Shown piece after piece: positions 2,850 through 32,340 of a stretch of DNA of 64,000 nucleotides; position 1 is the stretch's first letter; every line of letters starts with the position of its first letter. The notes under the pieces were generated by a model, which searched no databases, was not told where the DNA came from, and was given only the letters and a program-made list of their open reading frames with translations. Position numbers and translations under genes: made by a program. This stretch comes from Pseudomonadales bacterium (GTDB lineage: Bacteria; Pseudomonadota; Gammaproteobacteria; Pseudomonadales; Azotimanducaceae): contig JANQFF010000383.1 in the NCBI GenBank assembly GCA_028277965.1, forward strand, positions 2,325-66,324, read 5' to 3'.

Positions 2850-3962
2850 TTGACGGTCCGTCTGACTTTCCTGGCCGCCGTTCTGCTTGTTGCCGGTTGT
2901 GAGACGTTGTCGTTTTACAGTCAGGCTGCGCGGGGGCAGTGGCAGGTGTTAAACCGGGCTGAACCTGTGAGTGAGGTGATTTCAGCGCCGGGTCTCTCCG
3001 AAGAGACGAAGCGGCAGCTGGCACTTGCTCAGGAGGCCCTTGTTTTTGCAGAGCAACACCTCAGGCTCGATGTCGGGAAACGCTACAGGCGCTACGCTGA
3101 CCTGGAAAGGACAGCGGTTGTCTGGAATGTGTTTGCAGCGCAGCCCCTGGATTTAGGTGGCAAGCGCTGGTGCTATCCAGTGGCGGGGTGCACCAGCTAT
3201 CGAGGTTTTTTCAGGGAGGCTGCAGCGCACCGATATGCGCGCCGTATGGTGGAGAGGGGGTGGGAAACATACGTCGGCGCGGTACCTGCCTACTCGACCC
3301 TCGGCTGGTTTGACGATCCGATCTTAAGCACGTTTATCCACTGGCCGGAACCGGATCTCGTGAGCCTGCTGTTTCACGAACTGGCTCATGGTCGTATCTG
3401 GGTCAAGGATGACGTGTCCTTCAATGAGGGATTTGCCAGTTTTGTCGGTGAGGCGGGTTTGCGTGCGTGGATGGGGCGCAGGTACGAGGCGCGCGTCTAC
3501 GAAGACTACCTGGAGCGGCGGAAGGGGCAACGTCAGTTCCGACAATTCCTGGTGCGTGCCAAAACGGAGTTGACGAGCCTCTATGCCAGAACTGATTTGA
3601 ATCACGAGGAGAAGCTTGCGGGAAAAGAGGAGCTGATCGCTGCGGTCCTCGCGTGTTATGACACGCATCGCTCCGCCCTTGGCGGGGGCCGCTTCGATAC
3701 CCTCATGCATGAGCGGTTCAACAACGCTTACCTTGTTTCTGTTGGAACCTATGAGGACCGGGTGCCAGCTTTCAGGGTGCTGTTTGAGCAATCCGACGGT
3801 TGGGAGGATTTCTACCGACGCGTGGAGGCCCTGGCGGACCTCGAAGTCACTCACCGCGAACGTGAATTGTCATCACTGGAGGATGAGAAACATCAGCACA
3901 CTGATGACACCCGCCCCGATGAGGTTCACTGCGAGGCCTTCCCGGGCCATGGTGCTGACTGA
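2850..3962 (+). CDS. Zn-dependent aminopeptidase family lipoprotein
   Basis: FHELAH (HExxH) plus downstream FNEGFA, AYSTLGWFDDP motif, lipobox LVAGC; TTG 2850 follows GGAGGG RBS. Confidence 0.85.
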   Translation: MTVRLTFLAAVLLVAGCETLSFYSQAARGQWQVLNRAEPVSEVISAPGLSEETKRQLALAQEALVFAEQHLRLDVGKRYRRYADLERTAVVWNVFAAQPLDLGGKRWCYPVAGCTSYRGFFREAAAHRYARRMVERGWETYVGAVPAYSTLGWFDDPILSTFIHWPEPDLVSLLFHELAHGRIWVKDDVSFNEGFASFVGEAGLRAWMGRRYEARVYEDYLERRKGQRQFRQFLVRAKTELTSLYARTDLNHEEKLAGKEELIAAVLACYDTHRSALGGGRFDTLMHERFNNAYLVSVGTYEDRVPAFRVLFEQSDGWEDFYRRVEALADLEVTHRERELSSLEDEKHQHTDDTRPDEVHCEAFPGHGAD

Positions 3963-7467: not shown

Positions 7468-8927
7468 CCAGACTTCTTTTTCTCCTCCTGATACCTCTGA
7501 CTGGTTTTGCAGCAGACCCGATCCGTGTTGGCAGCAAAAACTTCAATGAGAGTTATCTGCTCTCGGAGGTGGTAGCGCAGCTGCTGGAGACGAACGGTTA
7601 TGAAGTAGAGCGTAAGTTCGGTCTGGGTGGCACGCTCATCTGCTACGAAGCGCTCAAGAAAGGTGAAATAGATGTCTATGTCGAATACACCGGCACGCTG
7701 AGCCAGGCGATCCTGGATCTGCCTGGAAATCCAGGGCGGGAAACACTGAACAGGGAGCTGGGTGCACTGGGTCTGAAGCTGCTGGCGGAGTTCGGTTTCA
7801 ACAACACTTACGCGATAGCGGTGCGTCAGGAAGTCGCTGAAACCCGGGCTTTAGAGACCATCGGCGACCTGGCCGGACAGGCTGACTTGCCATTTGTGTT
7901 CAGCCACGAGTTCCTTGAGCGTGAAGACGGTTGGCCGGGTCTGGCTGCAAGGTACGGACTTGCGGGCCATAGGGTTCAGGGCATTGAGCACGGGCTTGCG
8001 TACCAGGCGATATCAGAAGGCGCCATTGGGGTTACAGATGCGTACAGCACCGACGGTGAGCTTGTCCGGTACGATCTGAAAGTACTCGAGGACAACCTTG
8101 CATACTTTCCGAGCTACTTTGCTGCTCCGCTGGTTGGTGAGCAGTTACCTGAAGAAGCACGGGTGCTGCTGGAGACACTGAGCGGGACGATTGACGATCA
8201 GCGTATGCAGGCGATGAACGCTGACGTGGTCTTCAAAGGCATGTCTTTTGGGGAAGTTGCCCAGGGGTTTCTCGCGTCCCGGGGGGTAGTCAGCGAGGTA
8301 CGCGGACAAAGCCTCTGGGAGTCACTGTTGCGCAATACCCTCCGGCATCTGCAGCTAACGGGCATTGCGCTTGGTTTTGCGATTCTCATCGGCATGTCGC
8401 TGAGTCTCATGGTCTACCGTAGTGAGCGAACCAGCGCAGTGATTATTTATGTCAGCGGTCTTATGCAGACCATACCGTCCATTGCGCTTCTGGCGTTGAT
8501 GATTCCGGTGTTTGGGATCGGTGTGGTCCCGGCCATTGTTGCGCTCTTTCTGTACTCGCTGCTGCCGATATTGCGTAACGCCATCACTGCTCTTGCAAAT
8601 GTCGATCCGACGCTGGTCAAGGTAGGTCAGGCGATTGGTCTCAGTCAGAGAGAACTGCTTCGGCATGTGCTGCTGCCAATGTCCCTGCCAGCCATCTTTG
8701 CCGGGATCCGAACAGCGGCAGTCATCAGCATCGGAACCGCAACACTGGCTGCGTTCATAGGCGCCGGAGGCCTGGGCGATCCGATTGTAGTAGGGTTGTC
8801 CCTCGATGATGTTGAACTCATTCTGCAGGGCGCAATTCCGGCGGCCCTGCTGGCGATCGTGACAGAACTGGCGTTTGGGCTTCTCGAAAACAGGCTGGTG
8901 CGACGCCCCAGACGTAAGAGGACGTGA
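7464..8927 (+). CDS. Fused betaine/OsmF-type substrate-binding protein and ABC permease
   Basis: Signal peptide; GSKNFNE, YVEYTGT, FNNTYAIAV, EFLEREDG, YFPSY SBP motifs; C-terminal permease with QTIPSIALL and IGAGGLGD. Confidence 0.88.
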   Translation: MTRLLFLLLIPLTGFAADPIRVGSKNFNESYLLSEVVAQLLETNGYEVERKFGLGGTLICYEALKKGEIDVYVEYTGTLSQAILDLPGNPGRETLNRELGALGLKLLAEFGFNNTYAIAVRQEVAETRALETIGDLAGQADLPFVFSHEFLEREDGWPGLAARYGLAGHRVQGIEHGLAYQAISEGAIGVTDAYSTDGELVRYDLKVLEDNLAYFPSYFAAPLVGEQLPEEARVLLETLSGTIDDQRMQAMNADVVFKGMSFGEVAQGFLASRGVVSEVRGQSLWESLLRNTLRHLQLTGIALGFAILIGMSLSLMVYRSERTSAVIIYVSGLMQTIPSIALLALMIPVFGIGVVPAIVALFLYSLLPILRNAITALANVDPTLVKVGQAIGLSQRELLRHVLLPMSLPAIFAGIRTAAVISIGTATLAAFIGAGGLGDPIVVGLSLDDVELILQGAIPAALLAIVTELAFGLLENRLVRRPRRKRT

Positions 8928-8952
8928 GAAGACGTGAGAATTAGGAGAATTT

Positions 8953-9720
8953 TTGCAACCACTTGAACGAGAGGGCATTCGGCTTGCGGCCACTGTCATG
9001 TTGATACGCGATACAGCTCCCGATCGGGAGGAGGGGATCGAGGTCTACATGGTGCAGCGACCGGGGGGCGAGGTGTTTCCCGATCTGCATGTGTTTCCCG
9101 GCGGGAAAGTTGACGAAGGCGACTGGGCCCCGGACATCTGCGACACGATCGACGATGTGGAGGCAAGTAGGGACCTTGGTGTCGAGGCTGGCGGTCTGCG
9201 CTATTGGGTAGCGGTTGCCCGGGAGTGTTTCGAAGAGTGCGGTGTGCTCCTGGCCCGGCAGGAAGGTGCCATGATCGACTTCGATGAGCCACAAAATGAA
9301 GTGCGTTTCGAAAAATACCGGGCAGACCTCCTGGCGGACAGAATAACGTTTGCGGATATCTGTCATTCCGAAAACCTGACAGTTGCGTGTGATCTCCTCG
9401 CCTACTTCAGCCACTGGATTACTCCCGAAATGGCACCGCGCCGATTCGACACGCGCTTTTTTCTTGCCGCAATGCCGGCAGACCAGGACACCCTGGCTCA
9501 CGATGACGAGGTAGCGGGCGATCACTGGGTCTCGCCTCAGGAAGCGCTTGGTCACTTTGAGCGTGGGGAGTGGCAGATGATTGATCCAACGCTCAGAAGT
9601 CTCGAAACCCTCAGCCGGTTCAAGACGATTGGAGACGCCCTGGCAGGTGTCAGGGGTGGCAACCACCTCATGCCGCTGACGCCCGAGCTCAACCGCCAGG
9701 GTATGCAGCCTTTGAGGTGA
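8953..9720 (+). CDS. Nudix hydrolase, NUDT19-like (split Nudix box)
   Basis: AATVMLIRD, VFPGGKVD...RECFEECG, HWITP, RRFDTRFF; TTG start after AGGAG. Confidence 0.85.
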   Translation: MQPLEREGIRLAATVMLIRDTAPDREEGIEVYMVQRPGGEVFPDLHVFPGGKVDEGDWAPDICDTIDDVEASRDLGVEAGGLRYWVAVARECFEECGVLLARQEGAMIDFDEPQNEVRFEKYRADLLADRITFADICHSENLTVACDLLAYFSHWITPEMAPRRFDTRFFLAAMPADQDTLAHDDEVAGDHWVSPQEALGHFERGEWQMIDPTLRSLETLSRFKTIGDALAGVRGGNHLMPLTPELNRQGMQPLR

Positions 9721-10399: not shown

Positions 10400-12697
10400 G
10401 TGCTCGCCCGCGCGCTCGGCCGGTTTGTCGTTCGATCCTTCTGGTCGACGGCGATGGCCGTCCTCGGGATCGCTCTGGGTGTTATGTCAGTGGTCAGTGT
10501 TCACATAGTGACGGCTGAAGTGGCTTCGGAACTCGAAGCCCTTACGCCGAGGGAGTTTGCGGATCTGACTCACTTTCTTCACCAGGATGATCTCTCAGCC
10601 GATGAGTACTTTGAGCTTCGCGCACGGTGGCACCGGGGCGCTTACCCGGATATTGAATTCCTCACACCGGTGATCGATGAGCCCGCAGTCATCGACGGCC
10701 AGTCAGTGCGGGTTCTGGGTCTCGATCTCATCGGCGGGGGATTTACCCGGCTGGATTTCACCTCCGGCACTGCCGACCCGCGTGGTGTCTGGGTGGACGA
10801 TACCCTCGCCGGAAGGCTGGATTTAAACGTGAACGGCAGTATCGAGGCGCCGGATGTGGTGCTCGCCGATATTGGTGTTGCCCAACAGCTTCTGGGCTGG
10901 CCAGCTGACCGGTTGTCTTACGTAGCGACGCGCATCCGCGATCCGATTCAGGAAGTGAAGGATTATGGCGAACATCTTCTGCCTGGACTGGGCGCGGGGT
11001 GGCCTGAGACCAGACCCGAGGTGGATCTGGATGACACGTGGCGCCTCCTGTCAGCGCAACAGCAGAATCCGGCCTCACAATTCGGAAAGTCGGTCCTGTT
11101 CAACCTGAGCGCATTGGCGATGCTGGGTGTGCTTGTGGCCTGGTTCCTCATTTATCAGGTGGCTGTCGCGTGGCTGCGGCGCCTGTGGCCGACACTCGAA
11201 CGGTTCCATCTTCTGGGTGTTGGCATGACAGTCCTGGTTTCGAGTTTCGTGCTGACACTGGTCACACTTGCATTGGTTGCAGGTGTCATCGGCACATATC
11301 TGGGTGAGTGGCTGGCTGAGTGGCTCTTTGCACAGGCGACAGGCGCAAGTGGAACGGATCTGGCGGTTAACGGGTGGGTGTTGTTGAAGGCGTTCGGGTC
11401 AGCGTTGTTCGTCGCGGTCGGGGGTGGGTGCTGGGCAGTATGGCGGCGAAATGACACAACACGTACTTACGCATGGTTGACGTGGTTTGCGGCGCTCATC
11501 CTCGTGGGTCTGACGATCTGGGGAGTGGTTTCAGCGGAAACGGGCCTGGCCGGGGCGTTTTTGAGCATAGCGACCCTCAGTGTCATCTCCATGTTGATTG
11601 TCCGCCCCTGGCTTGAATGGTCGCGCCGACGGGCGGGGTGGCTCAAAGGGCCGCTGCTGTGGGTGCTGGGATTTCGTGAAACAGTCTGGCATCCGGGAGA
11701 TCTGACGGTCGCCATTGGCGGTCTGGGGCTGGCGGTGGCAACGGCTATCGGGGTAGGGCTGATGGTTGACAGTTTCCGTGCTGACTTCGACCGGTTTCTG
11801 ACCCAGCGCCTGTCGTATGAGGTGGTTGTTGAAGGACCGAAAGACGCTTTGCGTGTCTTTTCACACGACAGAGCGCGTGATAATGCGGAAACGCAAGTTT
11901 ATCGTGAAGGCGAAATTCGTGTGGGCGGTGTCCCGACTGAACTCAGGGTGGCTGACCTCAACGTATTCGAAGCCGCCCGCTACGGACACGACGGCGTCTT
12001 GTCAGCATCGACGGTGCTTGTTAGCGAGCAACTTGCCCGGACCGCATCCCTGGAAGCAGGCGACAGTTTCACTGTGGCAGGTGTGACAAGCCGGGTCGCG
12101 GGTGTGTTTCCCGGATTTGGAGATATTGCCCCGCGGCTGGTGGTAGATGAGTCGCACCCTCTGGCGATGAGGGCGACAGAGGTGGACTCGATCGCGTTGC
12201 GCCACATGGACGCCGGAGAACGTGCCCGGGCTGGAGTGGCTTATCCGGATCTCAGGTTTATCGAGCAGACAACGATGCGGGACCAGGCACTCGCGACCTT
12301 CGACCAGACATTTGTCATCACAGGGATTCTCATCACGATCGCTCTTCTTGTCGCGGGTATCGGGATTTATGTTGCAACAACCTCTCTCCGTCTCAACCGC
12401 ATGGCAAGTGCGAGGCTCCTGACATCCATGGGTGTCAGCAGTTCTGAAAACCTGGGTATCGATCTGGCACGGGCTGCCGGAACCGCAGGAGCGGCGCTTG
12501 GTATTGCGTTGCCGCTGGGCATTCTATTCGGCTGGATATTGTGTCGTGTGATCAATCCGCGTGCCTTTGGCTGGACGGTCGAACTGGCGCTCAATCCGGC
12601 ACCCGTTCTGGAACCGCTTGGCTGGGGGCTCCTCGCAGCCCTTCTGGCTGGTGTGGTCAGGTTTGGATCCAATGAAGAATCGCAGACGGCTGGCTAA
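10400..12697 (+). CDS. FtsX/MacB-type ABC permease (two repeats, AttF/G-like)
   Basis: Two N-terminal TM plus periplasmic plus 3-TM units; MVDSFR and INPRAFGWT motifs. Confidence 0.85.
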   Translation: MLARALGRFVVRSFWSTAMAVLGIALGVMSVVSVHIVTAEVASELEALTPREFADLTHFLHQDDLSADEYFELRARWHRGAYPDIEFLTPVIDEPAVIDGQSVRVLGLDLIGGGFTRLDFTSGTADPRGVWVDDTLAGRLDLNVNGSIEAPDVVLADIGVAQQLLGWPADRLSYVATRIRDPIQEVKDYGEHLLPGLGAGWPETRPEVDLDDTWRLLSAQQQNPASQFGKSVLFNLSALAMLGVLVAWFLIYQVAVAWLRRLWPTLERFHLLGVGMTVLVSSFVLTLVTLALVAGVIGTYLGEWLAEWLFAQATGASGTDLAVNGWVLLKAFGSALFVAVGGGCWAVWRRNDTTRTYAWLTWFAALILVGLTIWGVVSAETGLAGAFLSIATLSVISMLIVRPWLEWSRRRAGWLKGPLLWVLGFRETVWHPGDLTVAIGGLGLAVATAIGVGLMVDSFRADFDRFLTQRLSYEVVVEGPKDALRVFSHDRARDNAETQVYREGEIRVGGVPTELRVADLNVFEAARYGHDGVLSASTVLVSEQLARTASLEAGDSFTVAGVTSRVAGVFPGFGDIAPRLVVDESHPLAMRATEVDSIALRHMDAGERARAGVAYPDLRFIEQTTMRDQALATFDQTFVITGILITIALLVAGIGIYVATTSLRLNRMASARLLTSMGVSSSENLGIDLARAAGTAGAALGIALPLGILFGWILCRVINPRAFGWTVELALNPAPVLEPLGWGLLAALLAGVVRFGSNEESQTAG

Positions 12698-14549: not shown

Positions 14550-16778
14550 ATGAGTGAACAACTGAGTCCCCGGGAGTCTCTCACAAAGATGATGAACCGG
14601 ACCGCTTCGGACCTGACTGAAGCGCGTCTGTTGCTCGTGGACGACAAACAGGAACTGCTCACCTCGCTCTACCATCTGGTGACGCTTTATGGCTATGAAG
14701 CGGACCAGGCGCTGGGCGGTGAGGCGGCCATGCAGGCGCTGGAAAAGGACGAGTACGACGTCGTCCTGCTCGATCTCATCATGCCGGGTATCAGTGGTCA
14801 CGATATCCTCGACTACGTGGCTCGCGAAAAGCTCAAGTGCAAGATCATCGTCGTGAGTGGCGATGCAAGTTTCAGCGGCGTCAAACACGCACTTCATTGT
14901 GGTGCTTTCGACTTTGTCAAAAAACCTTATGAAGCAGCCGAGCTCATTGCGACGATGGAAACGGCGCTGCGCCAGGTACGACTGGAGAATCAGGCTGAGG
15001 AAATGGAAAGCCAGCTCAAAGAGTCCGAAGAGCTGCACCGTTTCATCGTCAACAGTTCACCTGATCTCGTCTATATGCTCGACCGTAATGGCTGTTTCAC
15101 ATTCCTCAACGATCGCGTCCAGGACCTGCTCGGATTTACGAAGAGCGAGCTGATCGGAAAACACTATTCTGAAGTCATCGAGGAGGAAGACCTCGAGGCA
15201 GTTAACAATCTCTTCAACGAACGCCGTACCGGTGGGCGTGCAGTCCGCAACGTCGAGATCAGGCTTAAAAGTAAACTTCCGGACCAGCGTGGCGGCGGCA
15301 TGATGCGCACCCAGTCGGTATGGTCGGAACTCACGGCCATGGGGATCTACTCGGACAACAACGAACGGACCCGTCAGAACTTCATTGGGACGTATGGAAC
15401 GGCGCGGGACATCAGCCAGCGCAAGCAGGCGGAGGAAGTCATCAACTTCCAGGCGTACCACGACCTGTTGACACATCTTCCCAATCGCGCACTGCTGAAG
15501 GACCGCCTCAATCTCGCCATCACCCACGCCCGCAGAAACAAACGCAAGCTTGCTGCGATGTTTCTCGACCTCGACCGGTTCAAGCTTGTGAACGATACGC
15601 TCGGTCACAACATGGGTGACCGTTTGCTGAAAGCGGTGGCCAACCGGTTACAGGGCTGCCTGCGGAAAGGTGATACGTTAAGCCGGTTCGGTGGTGACGA
15701 ATTCACGTTGCTTCTCCCGGAGGTCAGAACCCGGGACGATGTCGTGGTTATTGCAGAGAAGATCCTCGATCGGCTCAACGAACCGTTTGTCATAGATGGC
15801 CACGAACTGTTCGTTGGCGCCAGCATCGGCATTGCCATGTATCCGGAAGCGGGAGACACAGGCGAAGGCCTGATCCAGAACGCTGACATAGCCATGTACC
15901 ACGTCAAAAGCCGGGGCAAGAACGGCTACCAGTTCTTCTCCGACGAAATGAACCATCAGTTCTCATCGAGACTGAGCCTGGAACGGGAGTTGCGCAACGG
16001 TCTGATCAACGGCGAGATCGAGGTGCACTACCAGCCTCAGGTATCGTTGCGTGAGGGCGCCATCTCAGGTGTTGAAGCCCTGGTCCGGTGGCGTCACGGT
16101 CATCGCGGCCTGGTAGAGCCGCGCGAATTCCTGCCGCTTGCCGAAGAAACCGGGCTCATCCTGCAGATTGACGAATACGTGCAGAACCAGGCATTTCATG
16201 ATGTGGCTGCCTGGCAGAGGGCGGGCCTTGGTGACATCTGTCTCAGCGTAAACATGACCGCGATGCAGATAGAGCAGGAAGGTTTTGTCGAGCGCTTCGT
16301 CGCATCGCTGAACGCCTCGGGGCTCGATGCGTCGAGCGTGAAGCTCGAAATCACCGAGAGCACATTGATGGAGGACCTCGAGGTCATCATTCCCAAGCTC
16401 AAGGAAATCCGGCGTCTGGGTGTAGCGATCGCCATTGATGATTTCGGCACGGGATATTCATCACTCTCATACCTGCAGCAGTTCCCCATCAACACACTCA
16501 AGATTGACCGCAGTTTTGTCGGCGACATACGCGCGGAGCAGGGTGGGGCGACAATTGTCGACGCCATTGTCGCGATGGCCCGTGGTCTCAAGCTCGATCT
16601 CGTCGCTGAAGGTGTCGAGAACCGCACACAACTCAAGTACCTCAAAGAGCAGGGTTGTGAAGAAGTGCAGGGTTATATCTTCTCCCCGGCTGTTCCGGCA
16701 GGGGATCTCGTTGAACTCCTCAAGGACAACAGCTTCAACCAGGTTCTGGGCGAAGTGCCCGTCGCCGCAACCGCTTAG
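14550..16778 (+). CDS. REC-PAS-GGDEF-EAL c-di-GMP signalling protein
   Basis: Receiver (VDD, DLIMP, KKP), PAS, intact GGDEF with RKGD I-site, EAL, DDFGTGYSS, EGVE. Confidence 0.95.
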   Translation: MSEQLSPRESLTKMMNRTASDLTEARLLLVDDKQELLTSLYHLVTLYGYEADQALGGEAAMQALEKDEYDVVLLDLIMPGISGHDILDYVAREKLKCKIIVVSGDASFSGVKHALHCGAFDFVKKPYEAAELIATMETALRQVRLENQAEEMESQLKESEELHRFIVNSSPDLVYMLDRNGCFTFLNDRVQDLLGFTKSELIGKHYSEVIEEEDLEAVNNLFNERRTGGRAVRNVEIRLKSKLPDQRGGGMMRTQSVWSELTAMGIYSDNNERTRQNFIGTYGTARDISQRKQAEEVINFQAYHDLLTHLPNRALLKDRLNLAITHARRNKRKLAAMFLDLDRFKLVNDTLGHNMGDRLLKAVANRLQGCLRKGDTLSRFGGDEFTLLLPEVRTRDDVVVIAEKILDRLNEPFVIDGHELFVGASIGIAMYPEAGDTGEGLIQNADIAMYHVKSRGKNGYQFFSDEMNHQFSSRLSLERELRNGLINGEIEVHYQPQVSLREGAISGVEALVRWRHGHRGLVEPREFLPLAEETGLILQIDEYVQNQAFHDVAAWQRAGLGDICLSVNMTAMQIEQEGFVERFVASLNASGLDASSVKLEITESTLMEDLEVIIPKLKEIRRLGVAIAIDDFGTGYSSLSYLQQFPINTLKIDRSFVGDIRAEQGGATIVDAIVAMARGLKLDLVAEGVENRTQLKYLKEQGCEEVQGYIFSPAVPAGDLVELLKDNSFNQVLGEVPVAATA

Positions 16779-25435: not shown

Positions 25436-25876
25436 ATGAACGACGACATTGAACCCATCCGGGCCCTGGTGCACCGTTACTGCCACGCCGTTTGCGTGGG
25501 AGACACGGATGCCTGGGCAGATACCTGGGACGACGGCGCGGTGTGGAACATCGGCCGCGGTGAAGTCGTCGGGCGCGATGCCATACGCACTGCGTTTTCC
25601 ACGTCGATGGAGTTGTTTGATGCCGTCAAGCAGGTGGCACTCAGCGGGTGTGCGGATCTCAGCGACTCATCCGGACGCGGCCAGTGGTACTTCATGGAAT
25701 TGGCGCGCGCGAAGTCCGGGCGTAACGTGTTCTACCTCGCACACTACGACGACGAGTACCGGCTGGATGAACAGCGAGGTTGGCTGTTCACGGCACGTAC
25801 CATCACCTGGCACTACCAGGGTCCCCCCGACCTGACCGGGGTGTTCGGCGCGCCGGAGGGCTACTTCAGTAGCTGA
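25436..25876 (+). CDS. SnoaL-like / NTF2-family protein
   Basis: LVHRYCHAV...WADTWDDGAVW...GRDAI...YDDEY...WLF pattern. Confidence 0.82.
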   Translation: MNDDIEPIRALVHRYCHAVCVGDTDAWADTWDDGAVWNIGRGEVVGRDAIRTAFSTSMELFDAVKQVALSGCADLSDSSGRGQWYFMELARAKSGRNVFYLAHYDDEYRLDEQRGWLFTARTITWHYQGPPDLTGVFGAPEGYFSS

Positions 25877-25996
25877 ACTGGATCGGCTGGCGATTTCCCG
25901 CCCTGTGGTCCCGCATTCAGATGTACAGCACGGGCACCATTAGACAAAACCCAATCCAGTTCCTCGACAGCCTCTATTCAGATCCCCCTTTGTACC

Positions 25997-26041
25997 CTCT
26001 CGAAATGGAGGGGACGCGAGCTTTGTGTTTGTCAGTAGTCT
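25997..26041 (+). promoter_or_regulatory. Candidate activator-dependent promoter: palindrome CTCTC-GAAATG-GAGGG plus -10 TAGTCT
   Basis: Palindrome 25997-26012 and TAGTCT 26036-26041; the same arrangement occurs upstream of the amidohydrolase. Confidence 0.55.
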
Positions 26042-26072
26042 ACCGGGCGATAGGGGATACGGAGAGTTAAAC

Positions 26073-28412
26073 ATGCGGAACCAAATAATGAACTACTGTC
26101 TCGGGGCTCTAGCCTTTATGACGATGGCAATGCCAACAATCGTATTCGCGGAGTCGACCGAGGATTCTTCAGCCAGGGATACTACTATCGAAGAAGTTGT
26201 CGTCACTGCCCGGCGCAGAGCGGAAAGTCTGCAGGACGTACCTGTAACGGCCAGTGTGCTATCGGCCGATCTCATGGAGCGACAAGCTATCGACACCATG
26301 GATGAGATGGCGAATCGAATTCCCAATCTTGTCATCATCAAGGGTGCATCTGGTGGTGGCGGCTCATTGCGACTACGAGGAATTGGAACCAGCAACATCA
26401 GTGCGGCGTTCGACTCTGCAATTGCACTTAACATCGATGGTGTCGTTACCAACTCTATGAGGCTGGTGAACAATACGTTCATGGACTTAGAGCAAGTTGA
26501 ATTACTGAAGGGGCCACAGTCCTTGTACTATGGTAAAAGCGCATCCGCTGGTGTGCTAACGATGCGTTCAAACGATCCTGGCTCGGAATTTGAAGCGGAT
26601 GTGAGCGTCAGCTATGAGTCGGAACTGGATACAACGACGGTGTTTGGTGTGATATCCGGTCCGCTCTCAGATACCCTTGGAATGAGACTTGCACTGCAAA
26701 GCAAGGAAACCGACGAACTTTTCAAGAATACAGCCCCGGGAGTTCGTAATTCAGAACGAGGTGAGGAGAGTTTTGACGCTCGCTTAACAACCGTCTGGGA
26801 ACCATCAGACGTGTTGGATGTAAAGCTGAAACTCGCTTACTCCGACTTCGAAAACGATGGCACGTTGTCCAATCACGACATGTTGTGCCCAGGCACACAG
26901 CAAGATGTGATTGTCGGCGGAATTGTCTACGGCCCAAGTGGTCTCGACTGCGACCCGTTTGACCGCAAAATCCAGTTTGGAGATGCGAATCCAATCCTCC
27001 GAGGTAACTACCTGGGATGGGATGGGGTACCGTTCTCTGATCAAGAGGCAACTTTCGCCAGTCTTCAGATAGTGTACGACCTCTCCGATACCCTTACGCT
27101 TAACTCAACTACGGGTTATTTCGATATTGACGATGAGAGTGTAGATGCTTACGCCGGTAATCAGTTCGGTTTGGGCATAGGGCTGGCTCAGACCAGGCGA
27201 GAAGGTATATCCCAAGAAGTAAGAATTGAAAGCTCATTCGATGGGCCGCTCAACTTCATGGCGGGTGCCTACTATCAGGACCGCGAAATTGACTTTGAGT
27301 CAGGTGATGTTGCGCCGTTATTCCTGCCGATTTTCGGGCCGAATCCAGGAACTGGGGAAACGTTTGAGTGGCACAAGGTGCACGATACGGACGCAGAAAC
27401 CTGGTCTGCGTTTTTCAGTCTGGATTGGAGTGTTTCGGATCGACTGGATTTGACGACGGGTGTCCGCTACACCGATGAAGAAGTGTCCAACACGGTATCG
27501 TTGCCTTACGTCTACTTCTTCCTACCCGTGGCTATCCCCGTCGCCGGTTCGTCAGGGTTCCAGTCGTCGCCTATCGATTTCGACGACGACAACGTATCGC
27601 CCGAACTGAGCCTGCGATTCGCAGCGACTGATTCCACAATGATCTATGCGGCCTACAAAACCGGATTTAAGTCCGGCGGTGTAGACAATAGCGCGCTGCC
27701 CACCAACGTTTCGGCACCCGCTTTGCAGGGACTCATCTATGACTCGGAGACCTCTGATGGCTTTGAAGTTGGCACCAGATCTGATCTGTTAGACGGCAAG
27801 TTGCGCATCAACAGCACGTTTTATCGATACGTGTACGAAGACCTTCAAGTTCAAATATTTAATGGCGCGACCTTTCAGTATGTGACGCAGAACTTTGGTG
27901 AGGTGACAAGCCAAGGCGCTGAATTGGACTTAATCTGGGTCGTTGCGGGTGGTCTGGCTTTGAACGCGAGTCTCTACTATTCCGATTCTGAACTGACCGA
28001 CGACTTTTTTGATCAAACAAACGTAAATCAGAAAGGAGAGCAGATCACAGGAAACGCGGAGTGGACTGCTCAGTTAGGATTGGACTATTCCTGGGCTGTT
28101 GGCGACAACCTTAGAGCAGAGTTTTCTCTACACACGCGCTACTCAGACGACTACAACTTAGCCAATGAAAACCAGGTCTGGTACCGACAGGATTCTTATT
28201 GGGTTGTTGATGCCTATGCTGCCCTCGAAAGTGCGGACGAACGCTGGAGATTGTCGATTACGGGTATCAACGTGTTCGATGAAGACTATGCTCTCGATGC
28301 GGGTGCATCGACCGGTCGCATCCCTAACGTAGAAGACAATGGGCGTTTCGACCAAAGACTTACCATCGCACCGGGTCGTTTGTTTACCTTTGAAGCGAAG
28401 TATCGTTTCTAA
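26073..28412 (+). CDS. TonB-dependent outer-membrane receptor
   Basis: Signal peptide, TonB box EEVVVTARRR, LKGPQSLYYG, C-terminal YRF; ATG 26073 after GGAG. Confidence 0.95.
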   Translation: MRNQIMNYCLGALAFMTMAMPTIVFAESTEDSSARDTTIEEVVVTARRRAESLQDVPVTASVLSADLMERQAIDTMDEMANRIPNLVIIKGASGGGGSLRLRGIGTSNISAAFDSAIALNIDGVVTNSMRLVNNTFMDLEQVELLKGPQSLYYGKSASAGVLTMRSNDPGSEFEADVSVSYESELDTTTVFGVISGPLSDTLGMRLALQSKETDELFKNTAPGVRNSERGEESFDARLTTVWEPSDVLDVKLKLAYSDFENDGTLSNHDMLCPGTQQDVIVGGIVYGPSGLDCDPFDRKIQFGDANPILRGNYLGWDGVPFSDQEATFASLQIVYDLSDTLTLNSTTGYFDIDDESVDAYAGNQFGLGIGLAQTRREGISQEVRIESSFDGPLNFMAGAYYQDREIDFESGDVAPLFLPIFGPNPGTGETFEWHKVHDTDAETWSAFFSLDWSVSDRLDLTTGVRYTDEEVSNTVSLPYVYFFLPVAIPVAGSSGFQSSPIDFDDDNVSPELSLRFAATDSTMIYAAYKTGFKSGGVDNSALPTNVSAPALQGLIYDSETSDGFEVGTRSDLLDGKLRINSTFYRYVYEDLQVQIFNGATFQYVTQNFGEVTSQGAELDLIWVVAGGLALNASLYYSDSELTDDFFDQTNVNQKGEQITGNAEWTAQLGLDYSWAVGDNLRAEFSLHTRYSDDYNLANENQVWYRQDSYWVVDAYAALESADERWRLSITGINVFDEDYALDAGASTGRIPNVEDNGRFDQRLTIAPGRLFTFEAKYRF

Positions 28413-28431
28413 TTTGCTATAGGAGTAATTC

Positions 28432-29724
28432 ATGGAACCGAACTTACAAGACAAGCCTGTTGTACCGATGAGCGAGTACGTAGAACTACTCTCAGAGGGG
28501 TGGCGAGAGACGCTAAACAGCCGTCTCCAGATCTTCTTCAACCACATGAAAGAGACTTTGAGAGGCGAGACACAAACTATCTTATTGGTACTGAGGAATG
28601 CGCCACCGCATCTTTCGCTGGCGGACAATGTAGGCAAGCTCTCTATTGTCATTTCCGAATCGAAGGTCGAAGTCGCTCCCGATGGCAACGCCGAACCAGA
28701 CTTGATGATTGAAGCTGACTACACGCACGCCTTGCCTATTGCTCAGGCTGTTGGAGAAGAAGCGATATCCAGGGCGCTGCACGAAGCAAAACACAATTAT
28801 GGACAAGACTGTATTCGCGTCGAAGGCGCGTTGCCTGAGGGTCACCTGCGAACGATTCTGAGTGCAGCCTGGAACCATATGGCCAGACGTACGCTTGAGA
28901 ACCCAGACCTTGCTATGCGTGTTGTTAAGCAAGGGTTGACACGTCAGGTAAACGAGGTGGAAGAGCTCGGCTACACCGTGATTGAGAATGCCATTTCTCC
29001 AGAATTTACTGAATCTCTACGGAAGGTGATTCAGGAAGAGACGCTCTGTCACAACAATCTGCTGCAGGGCCGGGTCGATTCCAATGGTCTCCTCGGAAGA
29101 GGTCGATCTTTTGAGGACATTGTTCAAATACCGAAGCTCAGAACGGTGGCTGAGACAGCTCTCGGATGCAATATGACGCTCTATACAGTGGGTTCTGCTA
29201 TTTCGCTGTGCGGCCCCGGCAATGTACCCCTCCACACCGATATGCCAAATATTCCAGACCCGTACCCAGGCTGGGGGATGATCGGTGTTGCTGTGTGGGC
29301 GTTCGATGATTGGGTTGAAGAGGCGGGCACCACTTGGGTGATACCTGGCAGTCACAAGCTACGAAGATCACCAGGGCCTCAAGATACGATGGATGGCGGT
29401 GTTCCAATCTTGATGCCGAAAGGATCCGTGACGTTTTTTACTCACGGTATCCACCACTGGCAGGGAGACCGGAGCTTGCCGGAACCCAGAGTGACGCTTC
29501 ACAACGCGTACTGCAGAGCGTTTTTGCGACAGGCTGATGATTTCTCACATTTGGATGCCGCGTTGCATCGGAATTCACCGGTACTGTCGAATCTCGTTGG
29601 GCGCAATGATCACTGGGGATTGTCTGGGCATATGGGCCACGATCCAAGCCTTCAACAAACAGCGCTGAATCTAATGAACGACACCGTGCAACAAGCGTCG
29701 CTCAAAGCGGTTAGTGGAGGTTAA
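28432..29724 (+). CDS. SCP2-like domain fused to PhyH-family Fe(II)/2-oxoglutarate dioxygenase
   Basis: C-terminal domain has LHTD (HxD), WVIPGSH, distal HHW and R-x-T; the N-terminal ~150 aa resemble SCP2-like folds (LLSEGW, DLMIEADY). Confidence 0.78.
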   Translation: MEPNLQDKPVVPMSEYVELLSEGWRETLNSRLQIFFNHMKETLRGETQTILLVLRNAPPHLSLADNVGKLSIVISESKVEVAPDGNAEPDLMIEADYTHALPIAQAVGEEAISRALHEAKHNYGQDCIRVEGALPEGHLRTILSAAWNHMARRTLENPDLAMRVVKQGLTRQVNEVEELGYTVIENAISPEFTESLRKVIQEETLCHNNLLQGRVDSNGLLGRGRSFEDIVQIPKLRTVAETALGCNMTLYTVGSAISLCGPGNVPLHTDMPNIPDPYPGWGMIGVAVWAFDDWVEEAGTTWVIPGSHKLRRSPGPQDTMDGGVPILMPKGSVTFFTHGIHHWQGDRSLPEPRVTLHNAYCRAFLRQADDFSHLDAALHRNSPVLSNLVGRNDHWGLSGHMGHDPSLQQTALNLMNDTVQQASLKAVSGG

Positions 29725-29837
29725 CGCTTGGCGCTTGGGTAAAACTAACGCTGATTCCCCCCCGGCCTCCTCGCCCGTCCATGTGCTTACAAAAACTGAG
29801 TGATGGTCTGGCTGCTGGTGGATTCCGACCTATTCGA

Positions 29838-30644
29838 TCAAGGGTTCTCGTCGCGTCCAACGGTTCCAAGAAGACCGAACTGAACGGCCAATGCGACGCA
29901 GTGTGTAGCGCTGGCAGCGTTGAATTTAGTGCGACAATTATCAATATGGTATCTGACGGTGGTCGTTGATATGCCCACCTCTTCGGATACTTCTGCAAAG
30001 GACAGTCCGTTTGCAACAAGCTTTAGGCATTTCAATTCCTGTAGAGTCAGGTGTGGTAGAGATGCATCAATGGGATCTTTCGCATCAATGGTTTCCATGT
30101 GCGTCATAAACCTGTAGCCGAAATCCAAGAGCTCGGGAGATAGCTCATCCGCAATATTAGAAAGGACCTTGAGATCAACGGAACCACCCCATCCTATGTA
30201 CCCCACAGTTCCCATCGGTTGATGCAAGGGTATGACGAGTAGGTTTTCGACGCCGAGATCCTTCAACTGCTGATTGACGATCTTCTCATCCTGATCGAGC
30301 GGATCACGCCTCGTGTCTACAGTCAGGTTTGTGGCATATGGCAACCGGGTTGTCCAGACTCTCGAATCAGACTTGAGACTGAAGCGCCTTTTACGAACTC
30401 TTTCGAAAAACTCTGTCGGTAATCCTACGGCGTCCGCACCCGCAATAGATTCTGCGTTGTCCAGATTGAACACATCCCTGAACGCCACAGCTCGGCCAAG
30501 GCCGAACAGCGTTCCAGCGTCACTGAGCTTGTCGTAAGCGATTTCTTTTTGATCTAAGGAGCTAACCTCGCGTGAAATAGCGCGAAGTTCTTTCGCCAGC
30601 GCGGTCAGGTCGGATTCGCTTGTGATGCTCTCGTTTTGGTTCAC
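29838..30644 (-). CDS. LuxR-family regulator (autoinducer-binding-like domain plus HTH), no cognate luxI in window
   Basis: LTLQELKCLKLVANGLSFAEVSEEVGISTTTVRYHIDNCRTKF HTH; N-terminal IPLHQPMGTVG. Confidence 0.9.
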   Translation of the reverse strand: MNQNESITSESDLTALAKELRAISREVSSLDQKEIAYDKLSDAGTLFGLGRAVAFRDVFNLDNAESIAGADAVGLPTEFFERVRKRRFSLKSDSRVWTTRLPYATNLTVDTRRDPLDQDEKIVNQQLKDLGVENLLVIPLHQPMGTVGYIGWGGSVDLKVLSNIADELSPELLDFGYRFMTHMETIDAKDPIDASLPHLTLQELKCLKLVANGLSFAEVSEEVGISTTTVRYHIDNCRTKFNAASATHCVALAVQFGLLGTVGRDENP

Positions 30645-30783
30645 GCCACGCCCTGAGCTTTCGATGCGAGAGCAACCGCTTCATCAGCGTATGACTATGT
30701 TCTGGTTGCTCTAGGGCGTTGATTTTACATGAGATATCAGTTTGCACCTACACGCCTGAAACCAATGGCTGAACCTTGCAATC

Positions 30784-31596
30784 TCAGCTAAAAAAGATGC
30801 GTTCTGCTGTTTTCGAGGCGTAGTTTTCAGCAGCATCGCCAGTGAAGTGGTTGTTCGCTCCTTCAGGTCGCTTTTCATCAAATGAAAGTGCAGGAAAATC
30901 GGTTGCCCACATCAAGCGATCAGCTCCGTCATCGTTTCCAAAGTCGATAATCTCGCGGGGCAGTCGCTGCTCTGCGATGACTGATGACATCCAGTACAAC
31001 CTCGGCCACTTACGCATCAGGGCTACACATGAAGCGGCCCACGGTAGACCACCGTGACACATGACTACGTTAAGACTTGGGAAGTGCTCCATCACTGCAT
31101 CCAAGGCCATTGGATCCTGGAGCTGGTCAGAGATAGGAATATGGGGCATGCCCACTGTACAGCTAAGCACCAGACCTTCCTCTTCACAGGCTGCATAGAT
31201 AGGGAAGTACTTCGGGTGATCGTAGGGCAGACCGGAAAAGACACCTAGGACTTTGATGGATCTATAGCCCCGTTCCTTATAGCTTCGGATTTTGCGCATG
31301 TCTTCTAGCGCCGAAGAAGGTTGAACCGCCACACATCCGCCAAAGCGATCTGGGTGAGATTCTATTGCGGTATCAATGGCGCTTTGCAGGAGTTCCGAAC
31401 CGTAGGGATCTGTTAGCACCGCCTTTGTTACGCCACCCGAATCCATGAGATCAACTAAGGCATCCAAGCCGGTATACGCGGCTGAGTTCTTCAGCAGGTT
31501 AGGAGAACGCTTTGTACCGATCTCCAAGAGCTTTGGATCGAAGGGCGACGCAAATTCGGGGTGAAAAGCATTTATCCAGCAATCTATAAGTTTCAT
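30784..31596 (-). CDS. Amidohydrolase_2 family protein
   Basis: IDCW start, YFPIYAAC, CHGGLPW, WATDFP. Confidence 0.85.
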   Translation of the reverse strand: MKLIDCWINAFHPEFASPFDPKLLEIGTKRSPNLLKNSAAYTGLDALVDLMDSGGVTKAVLTDPYGSELLQSAIDTAIESHPDRFGGCVAVQPSSALEDMRKIRSYKERGYRSIKVLGVFSGLPYDHPKYFPIYAACEEEGLVLSCTVGMPHIPISDQLQDPMALDAVMEHFPSLNVVMCHGGLPWAASCVALMRKWPRLYWMSSVIAEQRLPREIIDFGNDDGADRLMWATDFPALSFDEKRPEGANNHFTGDAAENYASKTAERIFFS

Positions 31597-31668
31597 TGTC
31601 CTTCCAATCTCCCTTTTTTTGCCATGATCGATTGCCCGGTTGGCTTATCCGGTCCTAAAAACTGTTCG

Positions 31669-31776
31669 ATACTACCGTGAGCAGGTGAACTGAATACCCT
31701 CGATTCTGAGGGTCTTGTTGTAAGCGGAGCGGCTTTGGAGATCGATGCCAGCCACCTGCACCCTCGAAATAGAGGG
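31669..31776 (-). promoter_or_regulatory. Candidate promoter with two CCCTC-N6-GAGGG palindromes and -10 TAGTAT
   Basis: Palindromes at 31697-31712 and 31761-31776; TAGTAT on the minus strand at 31674-31669. Confidence 0.55.
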
Positions 31777-31848
31777 GACTCTGTTCTACTTCGAACGTCC
31801 CCTTCAGACCTCATAGCAGCCATGCAGTCTCTCTGGCACGATATTGGT

Positions 31849-32340
31849 ATGGACGCTTTTCACACCCTTGCTGAAGTTGCTGTCGCGATCGCGGGGTTCT
31901 CGTCTCTCGCAATAGTTTTTCGCGGGCAGCGCGTGGACTGGGACGGACAGGAGTACGTCAGCCTGGCGTTTGCCATGTGCTGGAGCATCGGGAGTGTATT
32001 TCTTGCCCTCCTTCCGGTCATCCTGAATAACTTTGGTTTCGACCTGATGACATCGTCCAGGGTTGGGCTTTTCCTTACGGCCGGTTACATGTTGCTGGTT
32101 GGTGGAATCCTCACAATGGTGCGGAGACGAATTCAGTCTCAAGGTGGTGGCAAGGCACGGCTCAGTCTGGGGCTCACCTCGCTCTATGGACTGATCATGG
32201 TGGGTGCCCTGGGGGCAGGATCGGGACTCATTCCGGGCCCGGCAGATGGCTGGTATGCGGTTGTGATTGCGCTCCTGATGGCGCATGCAACCGCAGAACT
32301 GGGGCAACTGGTGATCAAGGTGGTGCGCCAGGGCGGGTAG
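31849..32340 (+). CDS. Hypothetical integral membrane protein
   Basis: About five hydrophobic helices; start ATG 31849 (or 31822). Confidence 0.75.
   Translation: MDAFHTLAEVAVAIAGFSSLAIVFRGQRVDWDGQEYVSLAFAMCWSIGSVFLALLPVILNNFGFDLMTSSRVGLFLTAGYMLLVGGILTMVRRRIQSQGGGKARLSLGLTSLYGLIMVGALGAGSGLIPGPADGWYAVVIALLMAHATAELGQLVIKVVRQGG

Follow-up and report, generated by a model that had tools for sequence, protein, structure and literature searches.

In the present study, we analyzed a palindromic motif, CCCTC-N6-GAGGG, in a 64,000-nt stretch of DNA from a Pseudomonadales bacterium (assembly GCA_028277965.1, contig JANQFF010000383.1, positions 2,325 to 66,324; hereafter, the window), where it occurs in the promoter regions of a low-GC island, or cassette, of four genes encoding a TonB-dependent receptor, a dioxygenase, a LuxR-type regulator and an amidohydrolase. 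The motif is best read as a 20-bp operator with lux-box geometry that would serve a small clade of LuxR-type regulators. On sequence grounds, the regulator encoded in the cassette itself probably has the palindrome as its operator; that this regulator works as a class II activator is put forward with somewhat less confidence. The predicted regulon is well-supported, and the genetic switch would be of an ordinary type. The predicted operators and -10 hexamers of the window are as follows.

25995 to 26014, no strand: site 1, predicted 20-bp operator CCCTCTCGAAATGGAGGGGA, in front of the receptor-dioxygenase operon (position weight matrix score 22.3 bits)
26036 to 26041, plus strand: predicted -10 hexamer TAGTCT, 23 nt after site 1, with a predicted start near 26048
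31669 to 31674, minus strand: predicted -10 hexamer TAGTAT, 22 nt after site 2, with a predicted start near 31662
31695 to 31714, no strand: site 2, predicted promoter-proximal operator TACCCTCGATTCTGAGGGTC, in front of the amidohydrolase gene and probably also serving the LuxR-type gene (21.1 bits)
31759 to 31778, no strand: site 3, predicted distal operator CACCCTCGAAATAGAGGGGA, 64 bp from site 2 (23.3 bits)

The 16-mer cores of the three sites are CTCTCGAAATGGAGGG (25997-26012), CCCTCGATTCTGAGGG (31697-31712) and CCCTCGAAATAGAGGG (31761-31776). The first-pass annotation had placed three copies at these positions and had seen them in the promoter regions of the island only, and both points were confirmed: the three sites are the sole intergenic copies of C(C/T)CTC-N6-GAG(G/A)G in the window, the other matches lying within open reading frames (ORFs). 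One correction concerns site 1, which is present but has one mismatch to CCCTC-N6-GAGGG. Since the same change recurs in relatives, this mismatch is regarded as a C-to-T substitution at half-site position 2, with the spacing unchanged. An N8 spacing for site 1 (CCCTC-N8-GAGGG from 25995) was ruled out, because alignment with L001 and L002, two other copies of the cassette, shows the position-2 substitution in the N6 register. Half-site position 2 is C or T in several lineages, mirrored by G or A at position 15, and the motif as a whole takes the form 5'-[A/C]C(C/T)CTC-(A/T-rich N6)-GAG(G/A)G[G/T]-3'.

Exact CCCTC-N6-GAGGG occurs twice in the window, in the same intergenic region of the island. 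Copies with one mismatch number 7, with 2.84 expected, and exact half-sites separated by spacers of 4 to 10 nt number 5, with 0.54 expected. The remaining matches (at 3700, 12946, 17622 and 47501, and with an N7 spacer at 12157 and 38704) lie inside long ORFs and have GC-rich spacers; by this location, the two N7 copies and the four other one-mismatch copies were ruled out as members of the regulon. In a non-redundant set of 166 kb, made up of the window and eight related loci, C[CT]CTC-N6-GAG[GA]G was found 16 times against 0.93 expected (maximum of 4 over 200 simulations), and all 16 sites are intergenic and adjoin LuxR-type gene clusters, with none in coding DNA. The half-sites are short, which leaves room for chance similarity or for a dispersed repeat of the repetitive extragenic palindromic type. 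However, in view of this excess, of the restriction of the sites to non-coding DNA, of the lack of an Rfam family and of the lack of any high-scoring match in about 150 kb of control loci, we regard that explanation as barely credible. A folded RNA or DNA element was also rejected: no Rfam match was obtained in 25700-32100 at E <= 1, and the hairpins have stabilities of no more than -4 to -5.4 kcal/mol. A change at half-site position 2 is mostly not matched by a compensating one at the mirror position. Such weak hairpins and uncompensated "stem" changes point to recognition by a protein, and not to a folded nucleic acid. Site 2 was flagged as terminator-like on the plus strand, yet no plus-strand gene ends there, and it was rejected as a terminator.

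The hexamers TAGTCT (plus strand) and TAGTAT (minus strand) lie where the first-pass annotation had put them, 23 and 22 nt beyond the palindromes, and its arithmetic is correct: with the hexamers taken as -12 to -7, the palindrome centers come to lie at -43.5 and -42.5. For 14 of the 16 sites, TAnnnT stands at a distance of exactly 22 or 23 nt on a single side, and wherever a gene can be assigned, the hexamer is directed at it; the background frequency of TAnnnT is 0.0015 to 0.016 per position. At the distance seen for site 1, a TAnnCT hexamer is present in all five cassette lineages, the hexamers of the receptor promoters being TAGTCT, TAACCT, TAATCT and TACGCT. At the distance seen for site 2, the amidohydrolase promoters of L002, L004, L006 and L007 to L009 have TAGTAT or TAAGAT. 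A scan of the motif-bearing promoter regions found no sigma-70 -35/-10 pair, the -35 consensus being absent. If the hexamer is the -10 element, a distance of 22 to 23 nt puts the center of the dyad at about -42.5 or -43.5. A dyad that abuts the place of an absent -35 and keeps a rigid distance to the predicted -10 is the layout expected for a class II activator-dependent promoter, and the proposal that the palindrome occupies the class II activator position of both island promoters agrees with this spacing and with the absence of a -35.

Neither site 3 nor its L007 counterpart has a hexamer at 22 to 23 nt in either direction. Lacking a hexamer at the canonical distance, site 3 is more readily taken as an auxiliary site than as a third promoter. 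A third promoter for the ORF at 31822-32340 (plus strand) was considered and rejected, given the missing hexamer and the location of the ORF outside the conserved cassette. This ORF of 172 aa lies just beyond the cassette and has its ATG 46 bp after site 3; neither Pfam nor NCBIfam gives a significant family for it, only a weak, sub-threshold BacA-like match (E = 0.0048).

The palindrome is conserved among the copies of the cassette. It precedes the receptor gene in every copy that reaches that promoter (L001, L002, L003, L006 and L007 to L009) and the amidohydrolase gene in L002, L004, L006 and L007 to L009. The regulators of L001 and L002 are 71% and 76% identical to that of the window, and the intergenic DNA of these loci cannot be aligned by blastn. 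Conservation near orthologous luxR genes, which had been proposed as a check, was thus observed, the palindrome being kept where the intergenic DNA no longer aligns. For a footprint, the promoters of the window, L002, L001 and the distant L011 were anchored on the palindrome and compared without gaps. Mean pairwise identity was 33% over the 60 nt upstream, 90% in the half-sites, 48% in the 23-nt spacer, 78% in the hexamer and 36% over the 31 nt downstream, which is a classic two-block pattern of half-sites plus hexamer.

A counterpart of site 3 is found in L004 and in L007 to L009, where it stands 86 bp from the proximal site, compared with 64 bp in the window (the segments compared were 31713-31760 of the window, 70-139 of L004 and 8878-8947 of L007). 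The in-del of 22 bp amounts to about two helical turns, so that the distal and proximal sites keep facing the same side of the helix, and this suggests cooperative binding in front of the amidohydrolase gene. In the relatives of about 90% identity, a fourth site is present as well, 58 bp upstream of the site proximal to the receptor gene (L007 14738-14753, L003 4882-4897 and L009 14742-14757). Here TACGCT stands 23 nt away and is directed away from the cassette, where there is no convincing ORF; the fourth site possibly acts as a divergent promoter, giving rise to a small or non-coding transcript. The window is without it because the cassette homology ends at 25974.

The motif also occurs beyond the cassette. 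The nearest outgroup regulators, P0005 and P0006, are 33% and 32% identical to that of the window and belong to different gene clusters. Locus L010 (GC 0.46) has genes for a pyrroloquinoline quinone (PQQ) dehydrogenase, an aldehyde dehydrogenase, an esterase and a SnoaL protein, and L011 has genes for a Rieske oxygenase, an Amidohydro_2 protein and a TonB-dependent receptor. Each of these two loci has two intergenic copies of the motif, one copy being a perfect 22-bp palindrome (GAACCCTCATTAATGAGGGTTC), and all four copies have TAnnnT at 23 nt (TATAGT and TATTGT in L010, TAGTCT twice in L011). A symmetric 20-bp matrix was then built from 12 sites, and 32 further metagenome loci were scanned with it. 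The loci L015, L017 and L022, which were left out of the training of the matrix, score 19.1 to 25.0 bits, and their regulators are 33 to 36% identical. Their sites stand before a flavin monooxygenase gene in L015, before a gene of the coenzyme A (CoA) ligase type in L017, and within a cluster of Rieske and TonB-dependent receptor genes in L022. The best score among 22 control loci sharing only the helix-turn-helix (HTH) and the remote full-length relatives (L012, L013, L016, L018 to L021 and L023) was 13.5 bits. The motif-positive regulators have a common recognition-helix string, TT[VI]R[YFH][HF][IL]D[NT], and the motif-bearing loci, which range in GC from 0.46 to 0.63, have little in common except a regulator of this clade.

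These results bear on the possibility that some other regulator of the host genome uses the palindrome as its operator, the cassette LuxR-type protein binding elsewhere. The examined portion of this genome amounts to 64 kb, which leaves space for such a regulator. However, the sites follow the LuxR-type gene into unrelated contexts and are absent at other LuxR-family loci, and no second regulator gene was found inside the cassette by Pfam annotation of its genes. Because the motif follows this clade across unrelated genomes, we consider a foreign regulator quite improbable. The first-pass annotation had also predicted a self-contained regulon. The motif follows the cassette into new contexts and recurs beside regulators of 32 to 36% identity, which fits that prediction; as to self-containment, the scan reached over 64 kb of this genome.

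Several observations weigh against operator function in activation by this regulator. The amidohydrolase gene of L001 is without a site. Among the three loci left out of training, strict TAnnnT at 22 to 23 nt is found in L017 only (TAATAT at 22 nt), L015 having TATCCA at 23 nt and L022 having TATAGA at 34 nt. L021, an 11-kb locus with a relative at 33% identity, has no site. The public RNA consists of assembled sponge metatranscriptome contigs of an L007-type cassette, about 90% identical, with no run containing the window's own sequence. These contigs cover all four cassette genes. In L007 coordinates, transcription is predicted to start at 14644 for the receptor gene and at 8998 for the amidohydrolase gene; a contig in X15 ends at 14635 and one in X16 begins at 9019, which puts these ends 9 and 21 nt within the predicted transcripts, the contigs being strandless and possibly including DNA. 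With the same limits, contigs in X17 (14625-14824) and X18 (8743-8988) cross the palindromes, and the RNA is therefore ambiguous at the promoters.

Furthermore, a site centered at -42.5 could also serve a repressor. The same protein would then act on the same sites as a repressor or as a ligand-released regulator of the EsaR kind, blocking RNA polymerase at the -35 region until the ligand arrives. EsaR and ExpR of Pantoea and Pectobacterium are LuxR-family members that repress in the apo form. The dyad does cover the would-be location of the -35, and one of the L011 sites stands 43 bp before the start codon of the regulator itself, as is typical of autorepression. However, the lack of a recognizable -35 together with a negative sigma-70 scan is a hallmark of activator-dependent promoters, and the rigid 22 to 23 nt is needed by a class II activator, whereas a repressor tolerates variable placement. 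For these two reasons, repression is rated well below activation and seems to us unlikely.

As for the regulator, its GerE/LuxR-type HTH (PF00196) was found at residues 199-252 (Pfam E = 2.8e-12), and the Pfam autoinducer-binding domain (PF03472, Autoind_bind) gave no direct match in it even at E <= 10. A profile of the N-terminal 190 residues recovered 14 proteins at E <= 0.001 among 1.84 billion representatives, most of which are full-length LuxR-type proteins with Autoind_bind in Pfam; the best E value of PF03472 in the remote family members is 5.4e-14. The profile of this 14-sequence family aligns across both domains with CviR, TraR and LasR and matches the isolated LasR ligand-binding domain at E = 8e-4. 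An AlphaFold model from the 14-sequence alignment has a mean predicted local distance difference test (pLDDT) score of 81.5, and a model with only 5 sequences (pLDDT 42) was unusable. The best 33 PDB matches of the former are all quorum-sensing receptors (TraR, QscR, RhlR, CviR, SdiA and LasR), and the identity of the regulator to solved receptors is below 20%. Through the remote members, the profile and the model, the N-terminal domain is predicted to have the autoinducer-binding fold. The profile and the predicted fold identify the protein as a LuxR-type regulator of the quorum-sensing kind, though a very divergent one.

In the profile alignment to TraR, residues W57, Y61, D70 and W85, which we take to be the contacts of TraR with N-acyl homoserine lactone (AHL) in this numbering, correspond to F79, V83, S92 and T/A in the window protein, so that the AHL-contact residues are absent. 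Because these positions are substituted, AHL is unlikely to be the ligand. At one position of the recognition helix, the regulator has an aspartate, D235, whose counterpart in TraR is presumably a DNA-contacting arginine. In the eight loci that have Pfam tables, none of the called genes is listed under a LuxI-type (autoinducer synthase) family. The best NCBIfam match that reaches the N-terminal domain is the PA1136 family (TIGR03541; residues 122-257, E = 3.1e-8); with 33 bits against a cut-off of 215.6, the regulator is not a member of that family.

The predicted operator shares the 7-6-7 geometry of the lux box, the classical form in the control loci being ACCTGTCAGATTTGACAGTT and the consensus of the symmetric 20-bp matrix being CACCCTCAAATTTGAGGGTG, and the sites are intergenic and upstream of genes. 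The canonical CTG-N10-CAG is not present, since all 16 sites have C(C/T)C-N10-G(G/A)G, and no classical box of the control loci exceeds 12 bits when scored with the matrix. The description of the motif as lux-box-like thus holds for its shape but not for its sequence, which has CCCTC where classical boxes have CTGTC. The lux box of V. fischeri is centered at -42.5 in the luxI promoter. The cassette resembles LuxR with this box in Vibrio fischeri, as well as TraR with the tra boxes (class II), in its two-domain regulator, in the dyad of about 20 bp and in a predicted center at about -42.5 in a promoter without a -35. It differs from lux-type boxes in the half-site, (A/C)C(C/T)CTC here compared with CCTGT(A/C), and from LuxR and TraR in a regulator to which Pfam Autoind_bind is blind and which is so distant from the solved receptors. 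We found no paper describing a CCCTC-N6-GAGGG box in a literature search, and the VjbR box was rejected as the same box, being asymmetric and different. LuxR-type receptors bind as dimers to dyad-symmetric boxes of 18 to 20 bp and mostly activate (PMC10134790, PMC5449634).

The system can also be compared with the LuxR solos that do not respond to AHL (reviewed in PMC10134790, PMC3824090), namely the plant-associated OryR/XccR/PsoR group and PluR and PauR of Photorhabdus. The likeness consists in the lack of an adjacent LuxI gene, the substituted AHL-contact residues and the predicted control of neighboring genes through a promoter box. In contrast to these solos, the cassette regulator belongs to a separate and very small clade, has TonB-dependent receptor, oxygenase and hydrolase genes as neighbors, and is carried by a cassette that changes its place and comes from coral and sponge metagenomes. 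A further likeness is to substrate-induced operons for uptake and catabolism, in that one regulator, one outer-membrane importer and two modifying enzymes are all under the predicted sites of the regulator. Uptake loci with a TonB-dependent receptor usually have local regulators of other kinds, and a LuxR-type regulator of the quorum-sensing kind is unusual there.

The analysis shows the enrichment and conservation of the motif, its fixed spacing to the hexamer, its co-occurrence with the regulator clade and the predicted fold of the regulator; from binding and start sites to activation, feedback and ligand, the mechanism given next is inferred. A dimer of the regulator would bind the two half-sites through its C-terminal GerE HTH domains; the half-site centers are 11 bp apart and therefore occupy consecutive major grooves on the same side of the helix. 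The dyad would be located about 42.5 to 43.5 bp upstream of the predicted start, abutting or overlapping the place of the absent -35, and the bound dimer may recruit RNA polymerase as a class II activator. In this way, both the receptor-dioxygenase operon and the divergent amidohydrolase gene would be activated, and transcription that reads through the amidohydrolase gene into that of the regulator could give positive feedback. Site 3 would probably be a helper for cooperative binding. The inducing ligand is probably not an AHL and is plausibly a compound that the cassette imports and degrades. One possible but tentative extension is that coral and sponge symbionts have in the cassette a mobile "sense, import, degrade" module that regulates itself, in which a former AHL receptor senses a small molecule derived from the host or its microbiome and switches on an importer and two enzymes that modify it. 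The clade as a whole, with its regulators beside Rieske, flavin and PQQ oxidoreductases, hydrolases and CoA ligases, might then comprise sensors of catabolic substrates that arose from quorum-sensing receptors, each with a CCCTC-N6-GAGGG box.

The cassette and its genes are as follows.

25974 to 31787, no strand: conserved four-gene cassette (low-GC island) of 5.8 kb, delimited by blastn homology and GC content
26073 to 28412, plus strand: TonB-dependent outer-membrane receptor gene (Pfam Plug and TonB_dep_Rec_b-barrel)
28432 to 29724, plus strand: gene for a PhyH-like Fe(II)/2-oxoglutarate dioxygenase (Pfam PhyH, E = 1.6e-12)
29838 to 30644, minus strand: gene for the LuxR-type regulator of 268 aa, with a divergent autoinducer-binding-like N-terminal domain and a GerE HTH (Pfam GerE)
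30784 to 31596, minus strand: gene for a metal-dependent hydrolase of the Amidohydro_2 family (Pfam, E = 3.2e-28)

NCBIfam and PDB sequence searches gave no match and no specific function for the dioxygenase; for the amidohydrolase, the same searches gave no specific function, the sole PDB relative being an uncharacterised protein. By blastn against L003, L007 and L009, identity is 88 to 90% across 25974-29725 and 29820-31787, and the flanks are unrelated. The GC content is about 0.51 in the cassette and 0.58 outside. A search of 5.8 billion protein clusters found only four relatives of the regulator with more than 70% identity, and the four-gene arrangement is identical around all four, as well as in three contigs of metagenome-assembled genomes (MAGs) in a genome collection. 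The genes flanking the cassette are different in every genome, the flanks of L001, L006, L007 and the window being unrelated. Since the homology is confined to 25974-31787 and the flanks differ, we regard the island as a 5.8-kb cassette that changes its genomic place. The window derives from a coral metagenome and the relatives from sponge metagenomes.

A mobile cassette raises the question of whether the outer copies of the palindrome, sites 1 and 3, are terminal repeats or recombination sites that mobilize it. A direct repeat of 17 nt, 94% identical, lies at the island ends (25999-26015 and 31763-31779), the homology with other copies ends 11 to 23 bp outside sites 1 and 3, the place of the cassette varies among genomes, and insertion sequences have struck twice. 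On the other hand, site 2 is internal, the Pfam-annotated genes of the cassette include no recombinase or transposase gene of its own, and the end-points of homology vary between copies. Moreover, in L010, L011, L015 and L017 the motif stands in front of genes within clusters and not at the ends of a shared element, and a fixed distance to a -10-like hexamer would be meaningless for a recombination site. We therefore hold a role in mobilization to be highly improbable, and retain the predicted operator function of sites 1 and 3.

The two insertions struck independent copies of the cassette (L006 7421-9096 and L014 304-1727). In L006, the amidohydrolase gene is interrupted by a DDE transposase element of about 1.7 kb, and gene calling gives the regulator as a remnant of 168 aa; in L014, the amidohydrolase and regulator genes are separated by foreign, high-GC DNA of about 1.4 kb. 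Near-identical cassettes are assigned to distant phyla, L007 to a Pseudomonadales MAG and L008 to a Candidatus Binatia MAG, so that either the cassette was recently transferred horizontally or the 10-kb contig was binned in error. No relative of the regulator was found in a plasmid collection. A second direct repeat, of 15 nt and 87% identical (25728-25742 and 31782-31796; TGTTCTACCTCGCAC and TGTTCTACTTCGAAC), has one copy in a SnoaL gene 250 bp to the left of the island and the other exactly at the right-hand end of homology; it is probably due to chance, but could be the trace of an insertion event.

Our results offer a concrete operator sequence and a predicted promoter architecture for a LuxR-type clade that is named in no database and is seen almost only in uncultured, host-associated marine bacteria. 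Because operator, regulator and targets lie together on 5.8 kb, the whole circuit could be rebuilt in a laboratory host, where it would be a compact reporter for finding the ligand. The understanding of LuxR-type regulation is unchanged by this; the cassette adds a further case in which a receptor of the quorum-sensing type has apparently been re-used as the local regulator of a module for uptake and catabolism.

Some minor observations concern the clade and the control loci. The regulators of L010, L011, L013, L015, L017, L022 and the window are repeatedly found near genes for SnoaL-like proteins, Abhydrolase_3 esterases and Amidohydro_2 proteins, with oxygenases (Rieske, flavin monooxygenase-like and PhyH) and TonB-dependent receptors also nearby. 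These recurrent neighbors hint at one substrate class, perhaps a lactone, an ester or a lipid-like compound. Upstream of the remoter relative P0010, at about 3255-3275 of L012, there is a different palindrome with C/G ends (ACCCCCACATATTAGGGGCG), which may be the box of P0010 itself. Palindromes of the classical lux-box form occur near other LuxR-family genes in L024 (1261-1280 and 2231-2250) and L025 (626-645). Finally, four control loci (L026 5352-5371, L028 5347-5366, L029 3071-3090 and L032 5347-5366) have a recurrent 20-mer, AACTCTCGAAA(C/G)TCA(C/T)AGGT, which precedes unrelated LuxR-family genes by about 650 bp; its left half resembles a CTCTC half-site, and its right half resembles the half-site of a classical lux box.

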